Source: Escherichia phage O18-011. From it: a stretch of DNA of 64,000 bases. The position numbers and the translations under genes are program-made. This document shows, piece by piece, positions 57,557 through 63,834 of the stretch (positions within the stretch are counted from its first letter, which is position 1; each line of letters begins with the position of its first letter). A model generated the notes under the pieces. It saw nothing but the letters and a program-made list of their open reading frames with translations. It ran no database searches and was not told the origin of the DNA. The DNA is taken from the sequence record NC_070985.1. One strand, 5' to 3'.

Positions 57557-58355
57557 GCGCGCTTTCCTTATTGGCTCTGACCCTGAAATGTTCGTTCGTA
57601 CCAGCAATGGTATTATCACCTCTGTAGCTGGTTTGTTAGGTTGTTCTAAGGACGATAAGATCGCTCTGGCTAAGGATGTTCGTCTTCAAGAGGACAACGT
57701 ACTGGCTGAGTTTGATATTGACCCACAGAGCGGCTTTGAAGCGTTTAACGATAACATGCAACGTGGTATTGATCTCACCAACAATGTTCTGAACAAACTG
57801 GACATGGAAACAGCTCCGGGTATTAGCTCTCACATCTTCACCGAAGAAGAGATGAAGACTTTCAATGAATCAGCGTTCATCTTCGGATGTACTCCTGATT
57901 TCAACGCTTTCACTGGTCAGAAGAACCCATCCCCGACTTCTCAGAATAAGGGACTTCGTACTGCCGGTGGTCACGTACATCTTGGCGTAGTTGGTGCTTT
58001 GGATATCACTTTGCAAACTCAGATGATGCTGGGTGTGCTGTGTGACTACTTCCTGTCCCTCCCAGCAGTTATTATGGATAAAGATACTCGCCGTAAAGAA
58101 CTCTACGGTAAAGCGTCTGCAATCCGTTATAAAGACTATGGTATCGAATACCGTTCACTGTCTAACTTCTGGATTAGCGATCGTGAAAACCGTAAGTTTG
58201 TTTACGATCAGGTTGACAAAGTTGTTCAGCAGTGTGATATGTCCACTCTGATGGCATTGCACTCTCGCCTTCCGATTGAGAAGCTTCATGAAATCATTAA
58301 CGGCAACAACGTTAAAGAAGCGGACCAGCAGATCAAACTCCTTCAGGTAGCATAA
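57549..58355 (+). CDS. possible second carboxylate-amine ligase
   Basis: GSDPEMFV near N-terminus and GGHVHLGV later; tentative similarity to glutamine-synthetase-fold amidoligases, by eye. Confidence 0.35.
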   Translation: MTKRAFLIGSDPEMFVRTSNGIITSVAGLLGCSKDDKIALAKDVRLQEDNVLAEFDIDPQSGFEAFNDNMQRGIDLTNNVLNKLDMETAPGISSHIFTEEEMKTFNESAFIFGCTPDFNAFTGQKNPSPTSQNKGLRTAGGHVHLGVVGALDITLQTQMMLGVLCDYFLSLPAVIMDKDTRRKELYGKASAIRYKDYGIEYRSLSNFWISDRENRKFVYDQVDKVVQQCDMSTLMALHSRLPIEKLHEIINGNNVKEADQQIKLLQVA

Positions 58356-58364
58356 GAGGTTATC

Positions 58365-58982
58365 ATGAGCTTAGTAGCTGATTTTTCTCATTACTATAAT
58401 GGTACATGGATTGCTAAACGAGCAGGCAATATCAACCTTCCGTGTTTTGTGATTGGTGTTGAGCAGAGCGGTAACTTCCGCAGTGATGACTTCTCTCACG
58501 AAGCAGAACAGGCTCTGTATTTTGTTGTAGAGCAGTGGTACAAGAATGAGCAAGGGCACCTTCGAAACACTACGATGAATATTCCAGTGTTCGACCCAAC
58601 CTTGATTCTTGAATCGCCTGATGTTGGTTATCTGTTCCATAACGGTAACACTGTAAGCTGGACTCATATTAACCCTGTTCGTCAGAGAGCGAAGGGTTTG
58701 ATGGGTAACAAGATTCGAAATGCTCCGGGTGTTGGTCGTGCTATCTCCGGGGAGATGGTTTACAGCCTGTTCAATCCTGAATTCGATGGATTGGTTACTC
58801 GTTATATTTACATCAACCCTACGGATGGTAAGGTGCATTATAAAGGTGCACTGGTAGGACAAGTAGATCTGGAAGCGCCTCGTGACTCTTACGGTCAGCA
58901 ACCGATGCGACTTCTGGAACACTTTCATCACATTTCTGAAAACCTTAGCAATTACAATATTACGTTGGTGGATTCGTTATGA
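58365..58982 (+). CDS. hypothetical protein in amidoligase operon
   Basis: ORF track; ATGA overlap with next gene. Confidence 0.5.
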   Translation: MSLVADFSHYYNGTWIAKRAGNINLPCFVIGVEQSGNFRSDDFSHEAEQALYFVVEQWYKNEQGHLRNTTMNIPVFDPTLILESPDVGYLFHNGNTVSWTHINPVRQRAKGLMGNKIRNAPGVGRAISGEMVYSLFNPEFDGLVTRYIYINPTDGKVHYKGALVGQVDLEAPRDSYGQQPMRLLEHFHHISENLSNYNITLVDSL

Positions 58983-60082
58983 CAACTGTAGCGCAAACTT
59001 TTGGATATCGAGAAGGTCGTTTAACTGAGGCGCATAGTTCAATTGCACTTCAGTGCGGTGTCGGTATTGAACTTGAACTCGAAGGTTCCGATCATATCGA
59101 AGCAGATATGTGGGATTGTACAGAGGATGGTTCCCTGCGTAATGGTTGTGAAATGGTATGTTCACGGCCTTACAACGGACAGGAGTTGTTAGACGCTATC
59201 AACAACCTGAGTGAAGCAGTAGCTGAATCGCACGCCGAGGGGACTTGGCGTTGCTCTACTCACGTTCATATGGATATGAGGGATGCTGATAGTAATATCC
59301 TCAAGAAAACCATTCTCGCTTGGACCTTCTATGAAAAGATGTTGTTCAAGTGTTCAGGCTACCATCGTTACCGTAGCAACTTCTGCCCTGCTTTTGCAGT
59401 GGTACAAGCACAGGTAATGAATGCCTCTGACGCATTTAACTACGACGATGAAGAGTTCTTCAACCGTCTGGTTCGTTCATGGGATAAATATACATCTCTG
59501 AACCTTCTGCCACTTGCCCAATACGGTTCGATTGAATTCCGTATCAGTGAGCCTAAGTGGAAACGTGGTCAACTTCTCAATCTGGTTAACCGCTTCTTGA
59601 TGTTGAAGAAGCTGGCTTTAGATAACTCAGAGATGAGCAATGATCAGTTTATTGAGCATTTAAATACTGTACGATTTGCCCCAATGCTTCCTTACCTTCC
59701 TCTGGATTACAATCTGGACGAATCGGATTTGCATTCAGGGTATTGTATGGCCCGTGATGTTTTGTATTGTCGTTCTCATGGAGTAGAGCAGTCTGGTCGT
59801 ATTCGCTTACGTCGAACCAACTCCAACGGAGATGTTCTTGTTGACTTACGTTATATGTCAGACTTCTACGGATTCCTTGGGTATGTCCGAGGGAACGCTA
59901 ACAACTTGTACCAAGAGATTCTGGTTATGCTTCGTACAACTGACCTATCTACTGTACGATCTGCACCAGAGCAACGTATCCGTGCTATTTTTGACTTGCT
60001 ACGTGAGTCAGGCCACAGTGATAGCAATATCACAGGGTACATTCCAGATCATCTGGAAAATCAGTTAGAGCAAGCGCTGTAA
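58979..60082 (+). CDS. amidoligase (glutamine-synthetase-like carboxylate-amine ligase)
   Basis: GVGIELELEG ... EDGSLRNGCEMVCSRPY ... WRCSTHVHMDM matches the E.E / DGS..G.E..S.P / HVH pattern of this family as I recall it. Confidence 0.55.
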   Translation: MTTVAQTFGYREGRLTEAHSSIALQCGVGIELELEGSDHIEADMWDCTEDGSLRNGCEMVCSRPYNGQELLDAINNLSEAVAESHAEGTWRCSTHVHMDMRDADSNILKKTILAWTFYEKMLFKCSGYHRYRSNFCPAFAVVQAQVMNASDAFNYDDEEFFNRLVRSWDKYTSLNLLPLAQYGSIEFRISEPKWKRGQLLNLVNRFLMLKKLALDNSEMSNDQFIEHLNTVRFAPMLPYLPLDYNLDESDLHSGYCMARDVLYCRSHGVEQSGRIRLRRTNSNGDVLVDLRYMSDFYGFLGYVRGNANNLYQEILVMLRTTDLSTVRSAPEQRIRAIFDLLRESGHSDSNITGYIPDHLENQLEQAL

Positions 60083-60128
60083 TCGATGGGTGCCTCTGAT
60101 AAAGGGGCACAATTTAAAGGTTAATTAG

Positions 60129-60158
60129 ATGAAAGGGTTTACCCTTCAGGTGGATTAG
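60129..60158 (+). CDS. 9-codon leader mini-ORF (MKGFTLQVD) ending 3 nt before the amidotransferase Cys codon
   Basis: ATG with AAAGG 8 nt upstream; TAG at 60156-60158; same frame as downstream gene. Confidence 0.35.
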   Translation: MKGFTLQVD

Positions 60159-60161
60159 AAA

Positions 60162-62192
60162 ATTTGTGGCATCGTATTAGCTGGCGGTAATCTGTCAAGC
60201 ACTGATTTAGACGTATTTAACCAACTCTTTTATGCTGGAATGTTCCGAGGACAACATTCCTCCGGTATCTTCGGTCAGCGTAAAAGCACTAAGGAAGTCT
60301 TCACTTATAAAGAGGCACTTCCTTCTTTCGCATTCATCCTTCAAGATGAGTACAAGAAGCACACCACTGGTGAAACAGCTTACACTGTAGCGCCTTCATG
60401 GATTGTTGGTCACAGCCGTCATGCAACGAAAGGTGCAGTTAACGCCAAGAACGCCCATCCTTTCCAACATGGTAACATCACGCTGGTTCATAACGGAACC
60501 TTGATGGACCAAGACCTGTTACCTGACAGTAAAAACTTCGAGGTAGACAGTGAGAACATCTGCCACTCTATTAATACTATTGGTGCAGCAGAGACTATTC
60601 AAAAGCTGGATGGTGCTTTCACCTTAATCTGGCATGATGCTTCTGATAACCGCCTTCATATCATCCGTAACGAAGAGCGTCCTTTCCATCTCGCACGTTG
60701 TAACAGAGATTGGTTTGGTGCTTCTGAAGAAGATATGTTGATGTGGATTCTGAAGCGTTCTAAGTCTCACAAAAACCGAATTGATGAGCACTTTGAATGT
60801 AAAGTTGGTACAGAATATATCTTTGATATGTCAAACAACAGCATGACTCTAGTTGAAGAGGTCGCCCACGAGCTTCCGGTTTTTACGGTAATCAATCGTT
60901 GGGGCAATTACTACTCGAACAACTACAGCCAAAGCAGCTATCAAAGTTCCTCAAAAAGCAGTACAAGCAATCCTTACGACACGAAGCCGGGAGTGACAGC
61001 GGCAGACGTTCGTCGAAGAAACGCAGTGGTAAGTCAAAACAAAATCGCAAGCGATCGAAACATTGATATTCGCCGCGATATGACTGTGGAAATCACACCA
61101 CATGAGTTTATTCCTTATGCAACTGCTGGTGCTGTTCCTTCTCGTGGTAAGATGATTGGTTATATCTACGATGAGAAGTCTCAAGAGTATATCGAAGGTG
61201 ATGTTCATAACGTAGACATTAAGGCTTATCAGGATGCCCTGAAAGACCCTAAAATAGTTTACCGTGGGACAGTATCCTGCATCTCCGAAGTTAATGCTAT
61301 GGTTCGTTTAGTGATCACAGCAGGTCGTTTTGTTGACCCATCTCTGGAGAAAAAGGAGCCTGAGTCTACTACTGCTGACTTTGATGATGATATCCCTTTT
61401 GACATGAATGATAGTTTCGTCAATAAGAATGGCGTTACTATCACTCGTAAATTCTGGGAAGCACACTCTCATGGTGATTGCGGTGGTTGTGACAAACACA
61501 TTGACTGGAAGTATGCACCTAAAGCAGTCTTCGCATATCAATGCTACTGGCACCCTGAATGTCTGGAAGGTTTGACTAAACCTAAAGATGAAGAAGAGGA
61601 GGAAACTCCTATTGGTGTTTGTGAAATCTGTGGTGAAGTTAAAACAGAGAATGAGTTCGATGAAGAACTCAGTCGTCTTCGTGGTGAAGATATCTGTAAA
61701 GTCTGCGCTGTAGATGTAAAGAAGAAGGTATCTAATGCTACGATCAAAGATGGTTATGTCTGGATTAAAGCAACAGATACAACAAACGCCCGTCGTCCTA
61801 AATTTTCTTTACGGGTAACTGAAGATATGATCGGTCGTATGACTGTATTACCTTCCTCAGCGAAACAGACAGGCATCACTCTGGAGGATGTTGTTGATGC
61901 TTATGTTGAGAAACGTAGCAACAGTATTTTTGCAATCTCAACTAAGCCAAAAAAGGAGGAACCTGCTGAGAAAGCAGGTGTGTTTCCTGAATCACGAACA
62001 GCTCTCCGCAAAACTGTTGTCAGCTTCGACGGAAACCGAAGCACTGACTTCACCAAAGCAATGTGGTCAACCCTCGGATACTGCTCAGAGTGTTTTAAGC
62101 AGATTCCGTGGCGCGATGCTGAAAGTTGTACGCTTGGTTCTATGAATCAAGTTTATTGTAATTCTCCTAAATGTTCATTGAATAGAGGTTAA
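60162..62192 (+). CDS. class-II (Ntn-type) glutamine amidotransferase domain with Cys-rich C-terminal extension; probable ATT start
   Basis: Upstream of track ATG 60240 the frame encodes CGIVLAGG...LFYAGMFRGQHSSGIF, matching the PurF/GlmS N-terminus (Cys1, RGQ); then SRHATKG, NAHPF, HNG; C-terminal ~430 aa has several CxxC pairs. Confidence 0.55.
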   Translation: MCGIVLAGGNLSSTDLDVFNQLFYAGMFRGQHSSGIFGQRKSTKEVFTYKEALPSFAFILQDEYKKHTTGETAYTVAPSWIVGHSRHATKGAVNAKNAHPFQHGNITLVHNGTLMDQDLLPDSKNFEVDSENICHSINTIGAAETIQKLDGAFTLIWHDASDNRLHIIRNEERPFHLARCNRDWFGASEEDMLMWILKRSKSHKNRIDEHFECKVGTEYIFDMSNNSMTLVEEVAHELPVFTVINRWGNYYSNNYSQSSYQSSSKSSTSNPYDTKPGVTAADVRRRNAVVSQNKIASDRNIDIRRDMTVEITPHEFIPYATAGAVPSRGKMIGYIYDEKSQEYIEGDVHNVDIKAYQDALKDPKIVYRGTVSCISEVNAMVRLVITAGRFVDPSLEKKEPESTTADFDDDIPFDMNDSFVNKNGVTITRKFWEAHSHGDCGGCDKHIDWKYAPKAVFAYQCYWHPECLEGLTKPKDEEEEETPIGVCEICGEVKTENEFDEELSRLRGEDICKVCAVDVKKKVSNATIKDGYVWIKATDTTNARRPKFSLRVTEDMIGRMTVLPSSAKQTGITLEDVVDAYVEKRSNSIFAISTKPKKEEPAEKAGVFPESRTALRKTVVSFDGNRSTDFTKAMWSTLGYCSECFKQIPWRDAESCTLGSMNQVYCNSPKCSLNRG

Positions 62193-62196
62193 GTTT

Positions 62197-62430
62197 ATGG
62201 AAATCAGAAAAATGATGTTGGATAACGTTGTAACTACTCGACGTATCCCGATGACGAGCACAGGATGTGATAACCTTCGTGCAATCCAGAAGTGGATGCA
62301 AGCTGGTATTGGTCAAGTACTTGAAACACAGGTTGAGGTTCCTTTCCCAACGGTAATCAATAATGTACTTGCTGATTATGTAAAAATCAAAGGCATTAAG
62401 GTAGAACCTCATGTCAAATCTGGTTCCTAA
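62197..62430 (+). CDS. hypothetical small protein between amidotransferase and ATP-grasp
   Basis: ORF track; starts 4 nt after upstream stop. Confidence 0.45.
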   Translation: MEIRKMMLDNVVTTRRIPMTSTGCDNLRAIQKWMQAGIGQVLETQVEVPFPTVINNVLADYVKIKGIKVEPHVKSGS

Positions 62431-62635
62431 GAAACCAAAGATCACTCTCCTACAGTATTACATAGGAGTTCATATCGAATTAGTAACGGAGCAGCGAAAG
62501 CTGTATCCGTTCGCTTTCGGTCTGATTGATGCACCATCCGATGAAGTAGAGAACGATGCGTTCAATGACTACTTCGAAATTGAAGCTCAGATTCAAAAAA
62601 CTCGTAACGAAATTCTTAAACTTAAAGGTATCTAA
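62411..62635 (+). CDS. hypothetical small acidic protein
   Basis: ORF track; overlaps previous gene by 20 nt. Confidence 0.4.
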   Translation: MSNLVPKKPKITLLQYYIGVHIELVTEQRKLYPFAFGLIDAPSDEVENDAFNDYFEIEAQIQKTRNEILKLKGI

Positions 62636-62637
62636 CA

Positions 62638-63834
62638 ATGACTACTCGTATCCGTGTTCTTCCTTATGGCCCTTCTGATTCAGTTCGTGAACTTACTTCT
62701 GCAATTAACACTAAGATTCAGGAACTCCGCTTAAATGCTAACGTAATGTCTCTGGTATCAGAGGGTTCTCGTTATCGTTCTCGGGTTGGTGATATTGTTG
62801 TCAACTACGGAAACCGTCGATACAATGATGCTTTCTTCGGTGGTGCAACTGTGTTGAACTCTGTGATTGCCTTGAACCGAGCGGCTAATAAGGTTACAGC
62901 ATTTCAAACTTTGGAAGCTGCTGGGGTATCTACTGTAGAGTATACTGTAAGTCAGAGTGTGGCTTCAGATTGGAACCAGGATGATATCATTTATGAGCGT
63001 GGAATCCTAAATGGGCACTCCGGTGAAGGTATTACTGTTCGTCTTCCAGCGGAAGGTATTTCCCGTGCCCCACTGTATACGAAAGGTATTTCAGGCCCAC
63101 GTCGTGAATGGCGTGTTCATGTGTTTGAGGGTGTTATCACTTACGTTCAGAAGAAAATTCGTCGTAACGGTTATCGTGAACTGGAAAGCTATCGTGAAGA
63201 TATTCGTAACCATCATACTGGTTGGGTTTATTCTAACTCCTTCACTGAAGCCCCTCCTGATCAAGTTCTGATTCAAGCTCACAAAGCTGTATCCGCTCTG
63301 GGTTTGAACTTCGGTGCTGTTGACCTGATTAGCAAAGGTACTAACGCTTGGGTTCTGGAAGTCAATACAGCTCCGGGACTGACTGGAACAACTCTGGAAA
63401 CCTATACTCACAATATTGTTGAGTTTGTTAAGAGCTTCTCTGGTGTTGATCCTGACTACCGCGTTGCTTACGAACTGCCTGTTGAAGAAGTGGAAGAAGA
63501 ATTTGCTGAATCGGCAGATGACGAAAACTTTGCATTGGCAGCTGAGCCAGTTGCTGAAGAGTCTTCGGAACCTGTTCCTGAAACAATGCAAGTTGAAGAA
63601 CAAGGGTTAGAGATCAACCCGGTAACCCGTCGTAATCTGCGTCGTGGTTATTATATCGCTAACATCAAGCATCCTGAAAACGGCTCGACTGTAGCAAGTA
63701 ACGTAATTGTTTTCTTCTGTGGTCGTAACTTCTACCGCTCTGGATGGAACGCACCAATTAGCGATCGTCAGCTTGGTCGTGTGTTGCAGATTAATAGTAT
63801 TACCCTGAATGATGGTACTGTTGTAAACTACTAA
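62638..63834 (+). CDS. ATP-grasp ligase (RimK-like) with acidic linker and C-terminal extra domain
   Basis: KAVSALGLNFGAVDLISKGTNAWVLEVNTAPGL matches the ATP-grasp C-terminal motif; REWRVHVF upstream. Confidence 0.6.
   Translation: MTTRIRVLPYGPSDSVRELTSAINTKIQELRLNANVMSLVSEGSRYRSRVGDIVVNYGNRRYNDAFFGGATVLNSVIALNRAANKVTAFQTLEAAGVSTVEYTVSQSVASDWNQDDIIYERGILNGHSGEGITVRLPAEGISRAPLYTKGISGPRREWRVHVFEGVITYVQKKIRRNGYRELESYREDIRNHHTGWVYSNSFTEAPPDQVLIQAHKAVSALGLNFGAVDLISKGTNAWVLEVNTAPGLTGTTLETYTHNIVEFVKSFSGVDPDYRVAYELPVEEVEEEFAESADDENFALAAEPVAEESSEPVPETMQVEEQGLEINPVTRRNLRRGYYIANIKHPENGSTVASNVIVFFCGRNFYRSGWNAPISDRQLGRVLQINSITLNDGTVVNY

Follow-up and report, generated by a model that had tools for sequence, protein, structure and literature searches.

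Probable translation start at AUU, behind a near-invariant leader, of a class-II glutamine amidotransferase gene in phiEco32-like coliphages

The closest described counterpart of the translation start analysed here is the thrS-infC junction of Escherichia coli, where infC begins with AUU. Reporters carrying this junction (UAA GGU AUU) showed that reinitiation and de novo initiation each account for about half of expression, that AUU is 6-8-fold weaker than AUG, and that a hairpin just 5' of the Shine-Dalgarno (SD) sequence of the second cistron is not inhibitory there (PMC3592434). Initiation factor IF3 disfavours AUU as a start and holds back reinitiation as well (PMC5499595, PMC2268962). Only two genes of E. 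coli are known to start with AUU, and 0.004-0.024% of annotated starts are non-canonical triplets (PMC5499595). We analysed a 64,000-nucleotide stretch of Escherichia phage O18-011 (NC_070985.1; hereafter the window), which belongs to a Kuravirus, a phiEco32-like coliphage of the Gordonclarkvirinae with ~98% identity to NJ01 and phiEco32. It carries an amidotransferase gene that probably starts at AUU 60162, directly behind a 9-codon upstream open reading frame (ORF).

Read in frame on the plus strand, as are all features below unless stated, the sequence runs ATG (60129) AAA GGG TTT ACC CTT CAG GTG GAT TAG (60156-60158) AAA ATT (60162) TGT (60165) GGC ATC GTA TTA GCT GGC GGT. The upstream ORF, MKGFTLQVD* (60129..60158; hereafter the mini-ORF), lies in the same frame as the amidotransferase and is preceded at 8 nt by an SD-like AAAGG (60116..60120). 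A hairpin predicted by RNAfold, AAGGG-UUUA-CCCUU (60133..60146), ends 1 nt short of the SD sequence AGGUGGA (60148..60154), from whose GG it is 8 nt (AUUAGAAA) to AUU. The TAG (60156..60158) ends 3 nt 5' of the ATT (60162..60164), and the next codon, TGT (60165..60167), encodes the catalytic Cys, residue 2 of the primary product and residue 1 once Met is removed. From the ATT, the coding sequence (CDS) comprises 676 codons plus stop (60162..62192), orthologous to phi32_83, with a class-II amidotransferase domain of ~240 amino acids and then a Cys-rich C-terminal region. After the TAG, the next in-frame ATG, GTG or TTG is the ATG at 60240..60242 (Met27), an internal codon 26 codons 3' of the ATT, and it is here that the ORF listing opens a 650-residue amidotransferase ORF.

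The fetched infC junction reads UUGGAGGAAUAAGGU AUU and the window reads CAGGUGGAUUAGAAA AUU. Both have an AUU initiator, both have a GGNGG SD sequence (GGAGG in infC) with 8 nt to AUU, and in both the upstream stop (UAA in thrS, UAG in the window) ends exactly 3 nt before it; IF3 discrimination and mixed reinitiation and de novo initiation (PMC3592434, PMC5499595, PMC2268962) would be expected for the window. The two also differ. Upstream of infC lies a full gene, whereas the window has a dedicated 9-codon ORF; a 5-bp hairpin abuts the SD sequence in the window, where infC has only weak structure (-3.2 kcal/mol); and the window's SD sequence carries a central mismatch. Because the window gene, a phage gene, encodes a protein other than IF3, it lacks an autoregulatory loop.

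This layout is best read, by a wide margin, as initiation at AUU 60162, which, taken together with a probable mixture of de novo initiation and reinitiation, we consider likely on comparative grounds. When MCG(I/L)V orthologues are aligned, the ATT falls on their initiator Met. At that column Salmonella 7-11, Cronobacter GAP52, Aeromonas 4_4572 and Proteus Privateer read ATG TGT GG, 65 of 80 IMG/VR loci start ATG-TGT, and 82 of 91 database proteins begin with MCG, in a set biased by the MCGIV word index. Distant lineages (designated by L numbers) have ATT TG(T/C) starts without a mini-ORF (L066, L068, L073, L099 and L101) or ATC TGC (L102), and most non-AUG contexts have an SD sequence at an aligned spacing of ~7 nt; the position of AGGUGGA is taken by GGAGGA in L066 and UAAGGA in L101. 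In L068 and L073, the stretch of the frame from the last stop before the ATT to the ATT itself holds no start codon, and neither an upstream start nor readthrough can therefore be the general solution. In the other non-AUG lineages an upstream ORF ends within ~20 nt of the start, or overlaps it by 13 nt in L099.

The codons between the ATT and Met27 are translated sequence by the measure of selection. Codons 2-26 of the window, compared with Suseptimavirus or Nieuwekanaalvirus, differ at a proportion of 0.67-0.80 of synonymous sites (pS) and 0.087 of nonsynonymous sites (pN), a dN/dS of ~0.05, and residue 27, Met in the window, is Val (GTG, GTA, GTC or GTT) in SR02, EP335, ECBP2 and SU7. Together these make a truncated, nucleophile-less protein not credible. 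Proteomics of SU10 found the orthologue by mass spectrometry with nine peptides, which detects the protein and does not place its N terminus (PMC4281155). A sequence-only reading of this stretch had described the mini-ORF, the TAG, the AAA, the ATT-TGT and the canonical ATG at 60240, and the sequence bears out each of them. Its first option, initiation at AUU 60162, gains strong support from the Met1 column, the SD spacing, the independent ATT and ATC lineages and the phiEco32 annotation; its further proposal of reinitiation after the 9-codon leader is plausible, given the infC-like geometry of the junction.

Initiator tRNA would read AUU 60162 as fMet, with the SD sequence AGGUGGA, 8 nt upstream, serving it. 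Deformylase and methionine aminopeptidase would then strip the Met and expose Cys as the nucleophile; Cys is a permitted second residue for Met removal. Because the layout matches the thrS-infC junction of E. coli, initiation probably combines 30S subunits that bind de novo with ribosomes that undergo reinitiation on leaving the upstream ORF. We infer, besides this reinitiation, a role for the hairpin, in that ribosomes passing over the upstream ORF would melt it together with an outer stem, the two partly masking the SD sequence. As a non-canonical start, AUU should yield less protein than AUG would and be sensitive to IF3. The junction also holds a second possible start: AUUUGU contains an overlapping UUG in the +2 frame (60164), which opens an 8-codon ORF, LWHRISWR* (60164-60190), and a comparable short ORF is carried by the ATT-TGT lineages. 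As a stronger start codon than AUU, this UUG could compete for the same SD sequence.

The enzyme itself can be assigned with some precision. Translated from the ATT, the protein matches Pfam families PF13522 GATase_6 (55.1 bits; cut-off, 27) and PF13537 GATase_7 (27.4 bits; cut-off, 25), and PF13230 stays below its cut-off (21.2 against 23). A single-sequence search of PDB sequences gave only E ~0.02, so that a fold search was needed for a firm assignment. An AlphaFold2 (AF2) model with a mean predicted local distance difference test score (pLDDT) of 94.6 places strand beta-1 at residues 3-8, directly after the Cys, and Foldseek matched this model to the GlmS glutaminase domain (1xff), GFAT, PurF (1ao0 and 1ecf), AsnS and EgtC with probability 1.0 and template-modelling (TM) scores of 0.62-0.73. 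C2 is invariant in 7/7 phage orthologues and 44/44 aligned database homologues, as are G3, R29, G30, H84, R86, T89, N111, G112 and D129 (44 sequences), and the alignments keep C2-G3-I4-V5 (CGIV) without exception. A HMMER alignment to 1xff pairs H84-x-R86, T89, N97-A-H-P, H110-N111-G112 and D129 of the query with GlmS motifs, the glutamine-binding and oxyanion residues of GlmS being Arg73, Thr76, Asn98-Gly99 and Asp123. By sequence and model, then, the gene is the phi32_83 orthologue and encodes a class-II, N-terminal nucleophile (Ntn) glutamine amidotransferase with fold and catalytic residues intact.

Like GlmS, PurF, AsnB and EgtC, it has an N-terminal Cys right after the initiator, the RGxxSxG, HxR..T, NAHP, HNG and D motifs and, as predicted here, the four-layer alpha-beta-beta-alpha fold. 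Unlike them, it is a phage protein without a recognisable synthase or acceptor domain, encoded in a peptide-ligase cluster and begun at a non-AUG codon, with a Cys-rich C-terminal region of ~430 amino acids instead. Pfam returned no match in these C-terminal two-thirds (60890-62192). The region holds invariant Cys pairs and a further Cys, C440/C443, C467 and C512/C515 (numbering of alignment A1), which suggest zinc-ribbon-like modules in place of the canonical synthase domain. Since the protein shares only the glutaminase domain with GlmS, its product name in RefSeq, 'L-glutamine-D-fructose-6-phosphate aminotransferase', is unsupported.

The leader that precedes this gene is conserved to an unusual degree. 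The 68-nt segment at 60113-60180 recurs in 97 phage records, 67 of them identical, 28 with a synonymous GGC>GGT change only and two, both Aeromonas BUCT695, at 91%; the 95 near-invariant records are Gordonclarkvirinae and the two BUCT695 records Grimontviridae. Between genera, 46-65% of columns are invariant in the flanking coding sequence, against 100% of the 33 nt from the mini-ORF ATG to the ATT, as seen in five Gordonclarkvirinae of three genera. Because these 33 nt are fully invariant without a single wobble-position change, the leader behaves as a constrained regulatory element, unlike ordinary coding sequence, to judge from the alignment. A 9-codon ORF alone could be chance; the whole arrangement, on the same comparison, is neither chance nor artefact.

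The hairpin within the leader has a predicted energy of -4.6 kcal/mol for its core and -6.1 kcal/mol for an extended form that adds the pairs U60130-A60148 and G60131-C60147 and bulges A60132. BUCT695 changes it in the loop only (UUUA>UUAA), and the peptide there reads MKGLTLQAD*. The AAAGG upstream of the mini-ORF has a predicted unpaired probability of 0.72. An alternative hairpin in the minimum-free-energy (MFE) structure, GGUUUACC/GGUGGAUU, which would sequester the SD sequence, is unsupported, both BUCT695 substitutions breaking its pairing without compensation. An Rfam scan of 59900-60400 at a permissive E-value gave best scores of 8.9-16.7 bits against gathering scores of 37-70. The window holds no second copy of the leader, hence no regulon, and a scan of IMG/VR for GGATTAGAAAATTTGYGG returned known relatives, L066 and one chance match without an amidotransferase (L096), and nothing else.

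Several observations weigh against initiation at AUU with a contribution from the upstream ORF. The SD sequence for AUU has its central mismatch (GGUGG; GGCGG in BUCT695), and no phiEco32 gp36 promoter (tAATGTAtA), sigma-70 promoter or intrinsic terminator was found directly upstream of the leader. L098 has an in-frame GTG three codons upstream (GTG ACT AAA ATT TGT), so that GTG or ATT is a possible start, and in L101 the frame is open from an ATG 12 codons upstream; given these two, short propeptides are possible in this amidotransferase family. The mini-ORF SD sequence is lost in BUCT695 (AAATG) and the mini-ORF AUG is predicted to be almost always paired (unpaired probability, 0.02), so the upstream ORF may be poorly translated and direct initiation dominant.

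These last two points also favour the alternative that fares best, direct initiation at AUU only, with no meaningful translation of the mini-ORF, which we regard as possible but somewhat unlikely. The leader would then serve as an mRNA-stabilising 5' structure after processing, as a 30S standby or stacking platform, or as an operator for a phage or host RNA-binding protein. The absence of wobble-position variation, unlike in ordinary coding sequence, fits such a role, as does the combination of a hairpin and a strong SD sequence at non-AUG starts that have no mini-ORF (L066, L068, L073 and L107). It accounts less well for the mini-ORF ATG and SD sequence, which are positionally homologous to a real start in L104, or for a stop-3 nt-AUU spacing equal to that of infC, where coupling gives about half of expression; and upstream ORFs that end close to, or overlap, the start recur in the other non-AUG lineages described above. 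A mixture of de novo initiation and reinitiation at AUU 60162 is the reading that we retain.

Far less probable is a start at ATG 60129 with readthrough of the TAG and autocatalytic loss of a 12-residue propeptide, MKGFTLQVDxKI, the second option of the sequence-only reading. Propeptides occur in some class-II amidotransferases, and PurF of Bacillus subtilis carries one of 11 residues that is removed to expose its Cys. The 12-codon in-frame stretch before the Cys in the window is similar in length, and in L101 an extension of the same length (MQGRTLKDCYTI-CG) is open, with TAT for TAG; L098, for its part, could encode MTKI-CGIV from its GTG. A continuous propeptide ORF through to the Cys exists only in these two relatives, however. 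In the window, unlike in B. subtilis purF, the stretch is closed by TAG 60156-58 and holds an SD sequence aimed at the ATT. Natural UAG readthrough in E. coli is low, and the window has no suppressor tRNA, its sole tRNA gene being a tRNA-Arg (anticodon TCT; 51182-51257), as annotated in phiEco32. The leader-homologous lineages, L101 and L098 included, have within the putative propeptide an SD sequence correctly spaced for ATT. The ATT starts of L068 and L073, which lack any in-frame start codon after the nearest upstream stop, and the alignment of ATT to Met1 of most orthologues also count against readthrough.

A protein that starts at ATG 60240 or further 3', without the nucleophile and hence inactive or repurposed, is very improbable. 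This possibility, which had also been raised from the sequence, has gene callers on its side, since they choose the equivalent of 60240 (SR02) or Met115 (NJ01 RefSeq, Paul, EK5 and EcM-vB1). We reject it on the Val at residue 27 in relatives, the purifying selection on codons 2-26, the invariance of CGIV and the AF2 model, which needs residues 3-8 as its central beta-1 strand.

A bypass like that of T4 gene 60, from GAU 60153, next to the UAG, to GAU 60204 across a 48-nt gap, can be given hardly any credence. It would have matching codons for take-off and landing, the first of them followed by a stop, and a hairpin nearby, and the gap in T4 gene 60, 50 nt, is close to that here, but the skipped segment encodes the invariant CGIVLAGG nucleophile strand, which is under purifying selection, and the product would lack the catalytic Cys. 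Least credible of all is a sequencing or assembly artefact, with ATG misread as ATT or a spurious insertion: distant orthologues do have the plain ATG-TGT start without a mini-ORF that had been proposed as its sign, but the same leader and ATT recur in IMG/VR contigs and in 97 phage records that were deposited independently, with the ATT leader in ~95 independently sequenced genomes.

Relatives offer a view of how the leader may have arisen. In L104, whose protein is 69% identical, ATTTAAAGG stands 8 nt before ATG TGT as an ordinary start, and the mini-ORF ATG and its SD sequence appear to be positionally homologous to that start, an arrangement that would follow from an in-frame insertion of 33 nt separating ATG from TGT. 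GAP52 has TAGATGAAAGG in common with the window, and because the shared AAAGGA is the SD sequence of GAP52, the hairpin's 5' arm resembles the remnant of an SD sequence. L101 has the leader of the same length open in frame (MQGRTLKDCYT-I-CG), its TAT differing by one base from the window's TAG. This putative history leaves unchanged our reading of the leader's SD sequence as aimed at the ATT. The BUCT695 protein groups with that of Cronobacter GAP52, whose gene starts at ATG, and shares only 34% identity with the window protein; the BUCT695 leader and first eight codons (L006, 1505-1575) are ~91% identical to the Kuravirus leader. This suggests either a leader module transferred between phage families or extreme constraint.

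Weak starts have appeared repeatedly in this family. Fitch parsimony on a rough neighbour-joining tree of 76 unique N-terminal domains required at least nine changes from ATG to a non-ATG start, the root being ATG. The 61 distinct start contexts, which come from lineages that are not fully independent, include 12 that are non-AUG (ATT, ATC or TTG), nine of these being ATT or ATC. SD matches average 5.8 nt in the 12 non-AUG contexts versus 4.7 nt in ATG contexts (p ~1e-3), and structure in a fixed window from -40 to -13 has a median of -5.5 versus -0.6 kcal/mol (p ~1e-4). Hairpins of 5 bp or more that abut the SD sequence occur in 6/12 non-AUG and 0/49 ATG contexts (Fisher p ~2e-5, by a criterion picked after the data were seen). 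The six abutting stems are all distinct (AAGGG/CCCUU, AGGGU/ACCCU, UCAAGCU/AGCUUGA, UAAAGC/GCUUUA, AGCGC/GCGCU and UAGAGG/CCUCUG), those outside the window's own leader belonging to L066, L068, L073, L101 and L107. Individual cases include L102 (ENA ERZ26051151 contig, ~266-270), with ATC TGC at the Met1 column and UAAGGAGGG, 7 nt and then AUC, and L107 (213), L056 and L069 (2501), with TTG TGT at that column.

One tentative extension of these patterns, which we think rather unlikely as a whole, is that the mini-ORF, the hairpin abutting the SD sequence, the stop and the AUU form a portable weak-start cassette that gates a potentially harmful glutaminase on the translation state of the host. 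The gate would be the IF3/IF2 balance or ribosome traffic over the mini-ORF, and the proposal includes repeated evolution (at least ~9 switches to or from non-AUG) and possible movement between phage families, as in BUCT695. In any case, comparisons within the enzyme family lend themselves to the questions of how a ribosome manages to use a weak start and of whether IF3-sensitive initiation is exploited by phages.

The ATT start itself is not new, being present in the 2008 reference annotation, and is a further case of infC-type initiation; with this central fact already annotated, no long-standing question is opened. In the phiEco32 record, phi32_83 (YP_001671828; 54493..56523, complement) starts exactly at ATT TGT GGC, the only ATT among 128 CDS starts (112 ATG, 13 GTG and 2 TTG). 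ATT starts are also annotated in SU10 (SU10_085), LAMP (gp83) and the Bas phages (Bas92_0065), all of which carry the same gene as the window at ~98% identity, with no biological difference. The invariant leader, and the repeated weak starts with a strong SD sequence and an abutting hairpin, appear to be undescribed so far; no description of the leader was found in the literature, in a search whose scope excludes two Journal of Molecular Biology (JMB) papers on phiEco32.

In most other records the start is lost. Of 40 records sampled across the set, only about one in five annotates a CDS that includes the ATT. Truncated annotations begin at codon 11 or 12 in ECBP2 (JX415536), SU7 (MZ342906) and BUCT695 (OL799327), at the 60240 equivalent in SR02 (OQ870566), at Met115 in NJ01 (RefSeq NC_018835), Paul (MN045231), EK5 (PQ805429) and EcM-vB1 (PV574017), and later still in EP335 (NC_070979). 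These truncations, of 10 to more than 114 codons, delete the catalytic Cys, and automated callers will go on spreading the annotation of an 'inactive' enzyme for this widespread coliphage gene. In the EK5 record, two spurious small ORFs are called in the skipped N-terminal region.

The amidotransferase gene has genes for a COOH-NH2 ligase, an Amidoligase_2 protein and an ATP-grasp protein as neighbours. This peptide-ligase-type cluster (57549-63834) comprises COOH-NH2_lig (57549-58355), a 205-residue ORF (58365-58982) and Amidoligase_2 (58979-60082) on the 5' side, and two small ORFs and then an ATP-grasp/RimK-like protein (62638-63834) on the 3' side; a gamma-glutamyl cyclotransferase is annotated near it in phiEco32. 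The amidoligase and ATP-grasp neighbours suggest a partner for the amidotransferase.

Between the amidoligase and the leader lies a terminator-like hairpin in the MFE structure, GUGCCUCU-GAUAA-AGGGGCAC (60090..60110), which starts 8 nt 3' of the amidoligase stop codon (TAA 60080-82) and has no U-tract; a terminator scan did not call it, and it may instead act as an attenuator, a processing site or a stabiliser. Its stem is kept with other sequence in Suseptimavirus and Nieuwekanaalvirus (GCGCUCU.../...GGGCGC and GUGCCUC/GGGGCAC), and 7-11 and Aeromonas 4_4572 have classical GC-hairpin and U-tract terminators at this spot. The exact gp36 promoter element TAATGTATA occurs in the window at 848, 7060(-), 7132, 17091(-) and 34117(-), and nowhere upstream of the amidotransferase. 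With one mismatch allowed there are 17 occurrences in total, no more than in shuffles, and the exact ones probably correspond to middle and late promoters already known.

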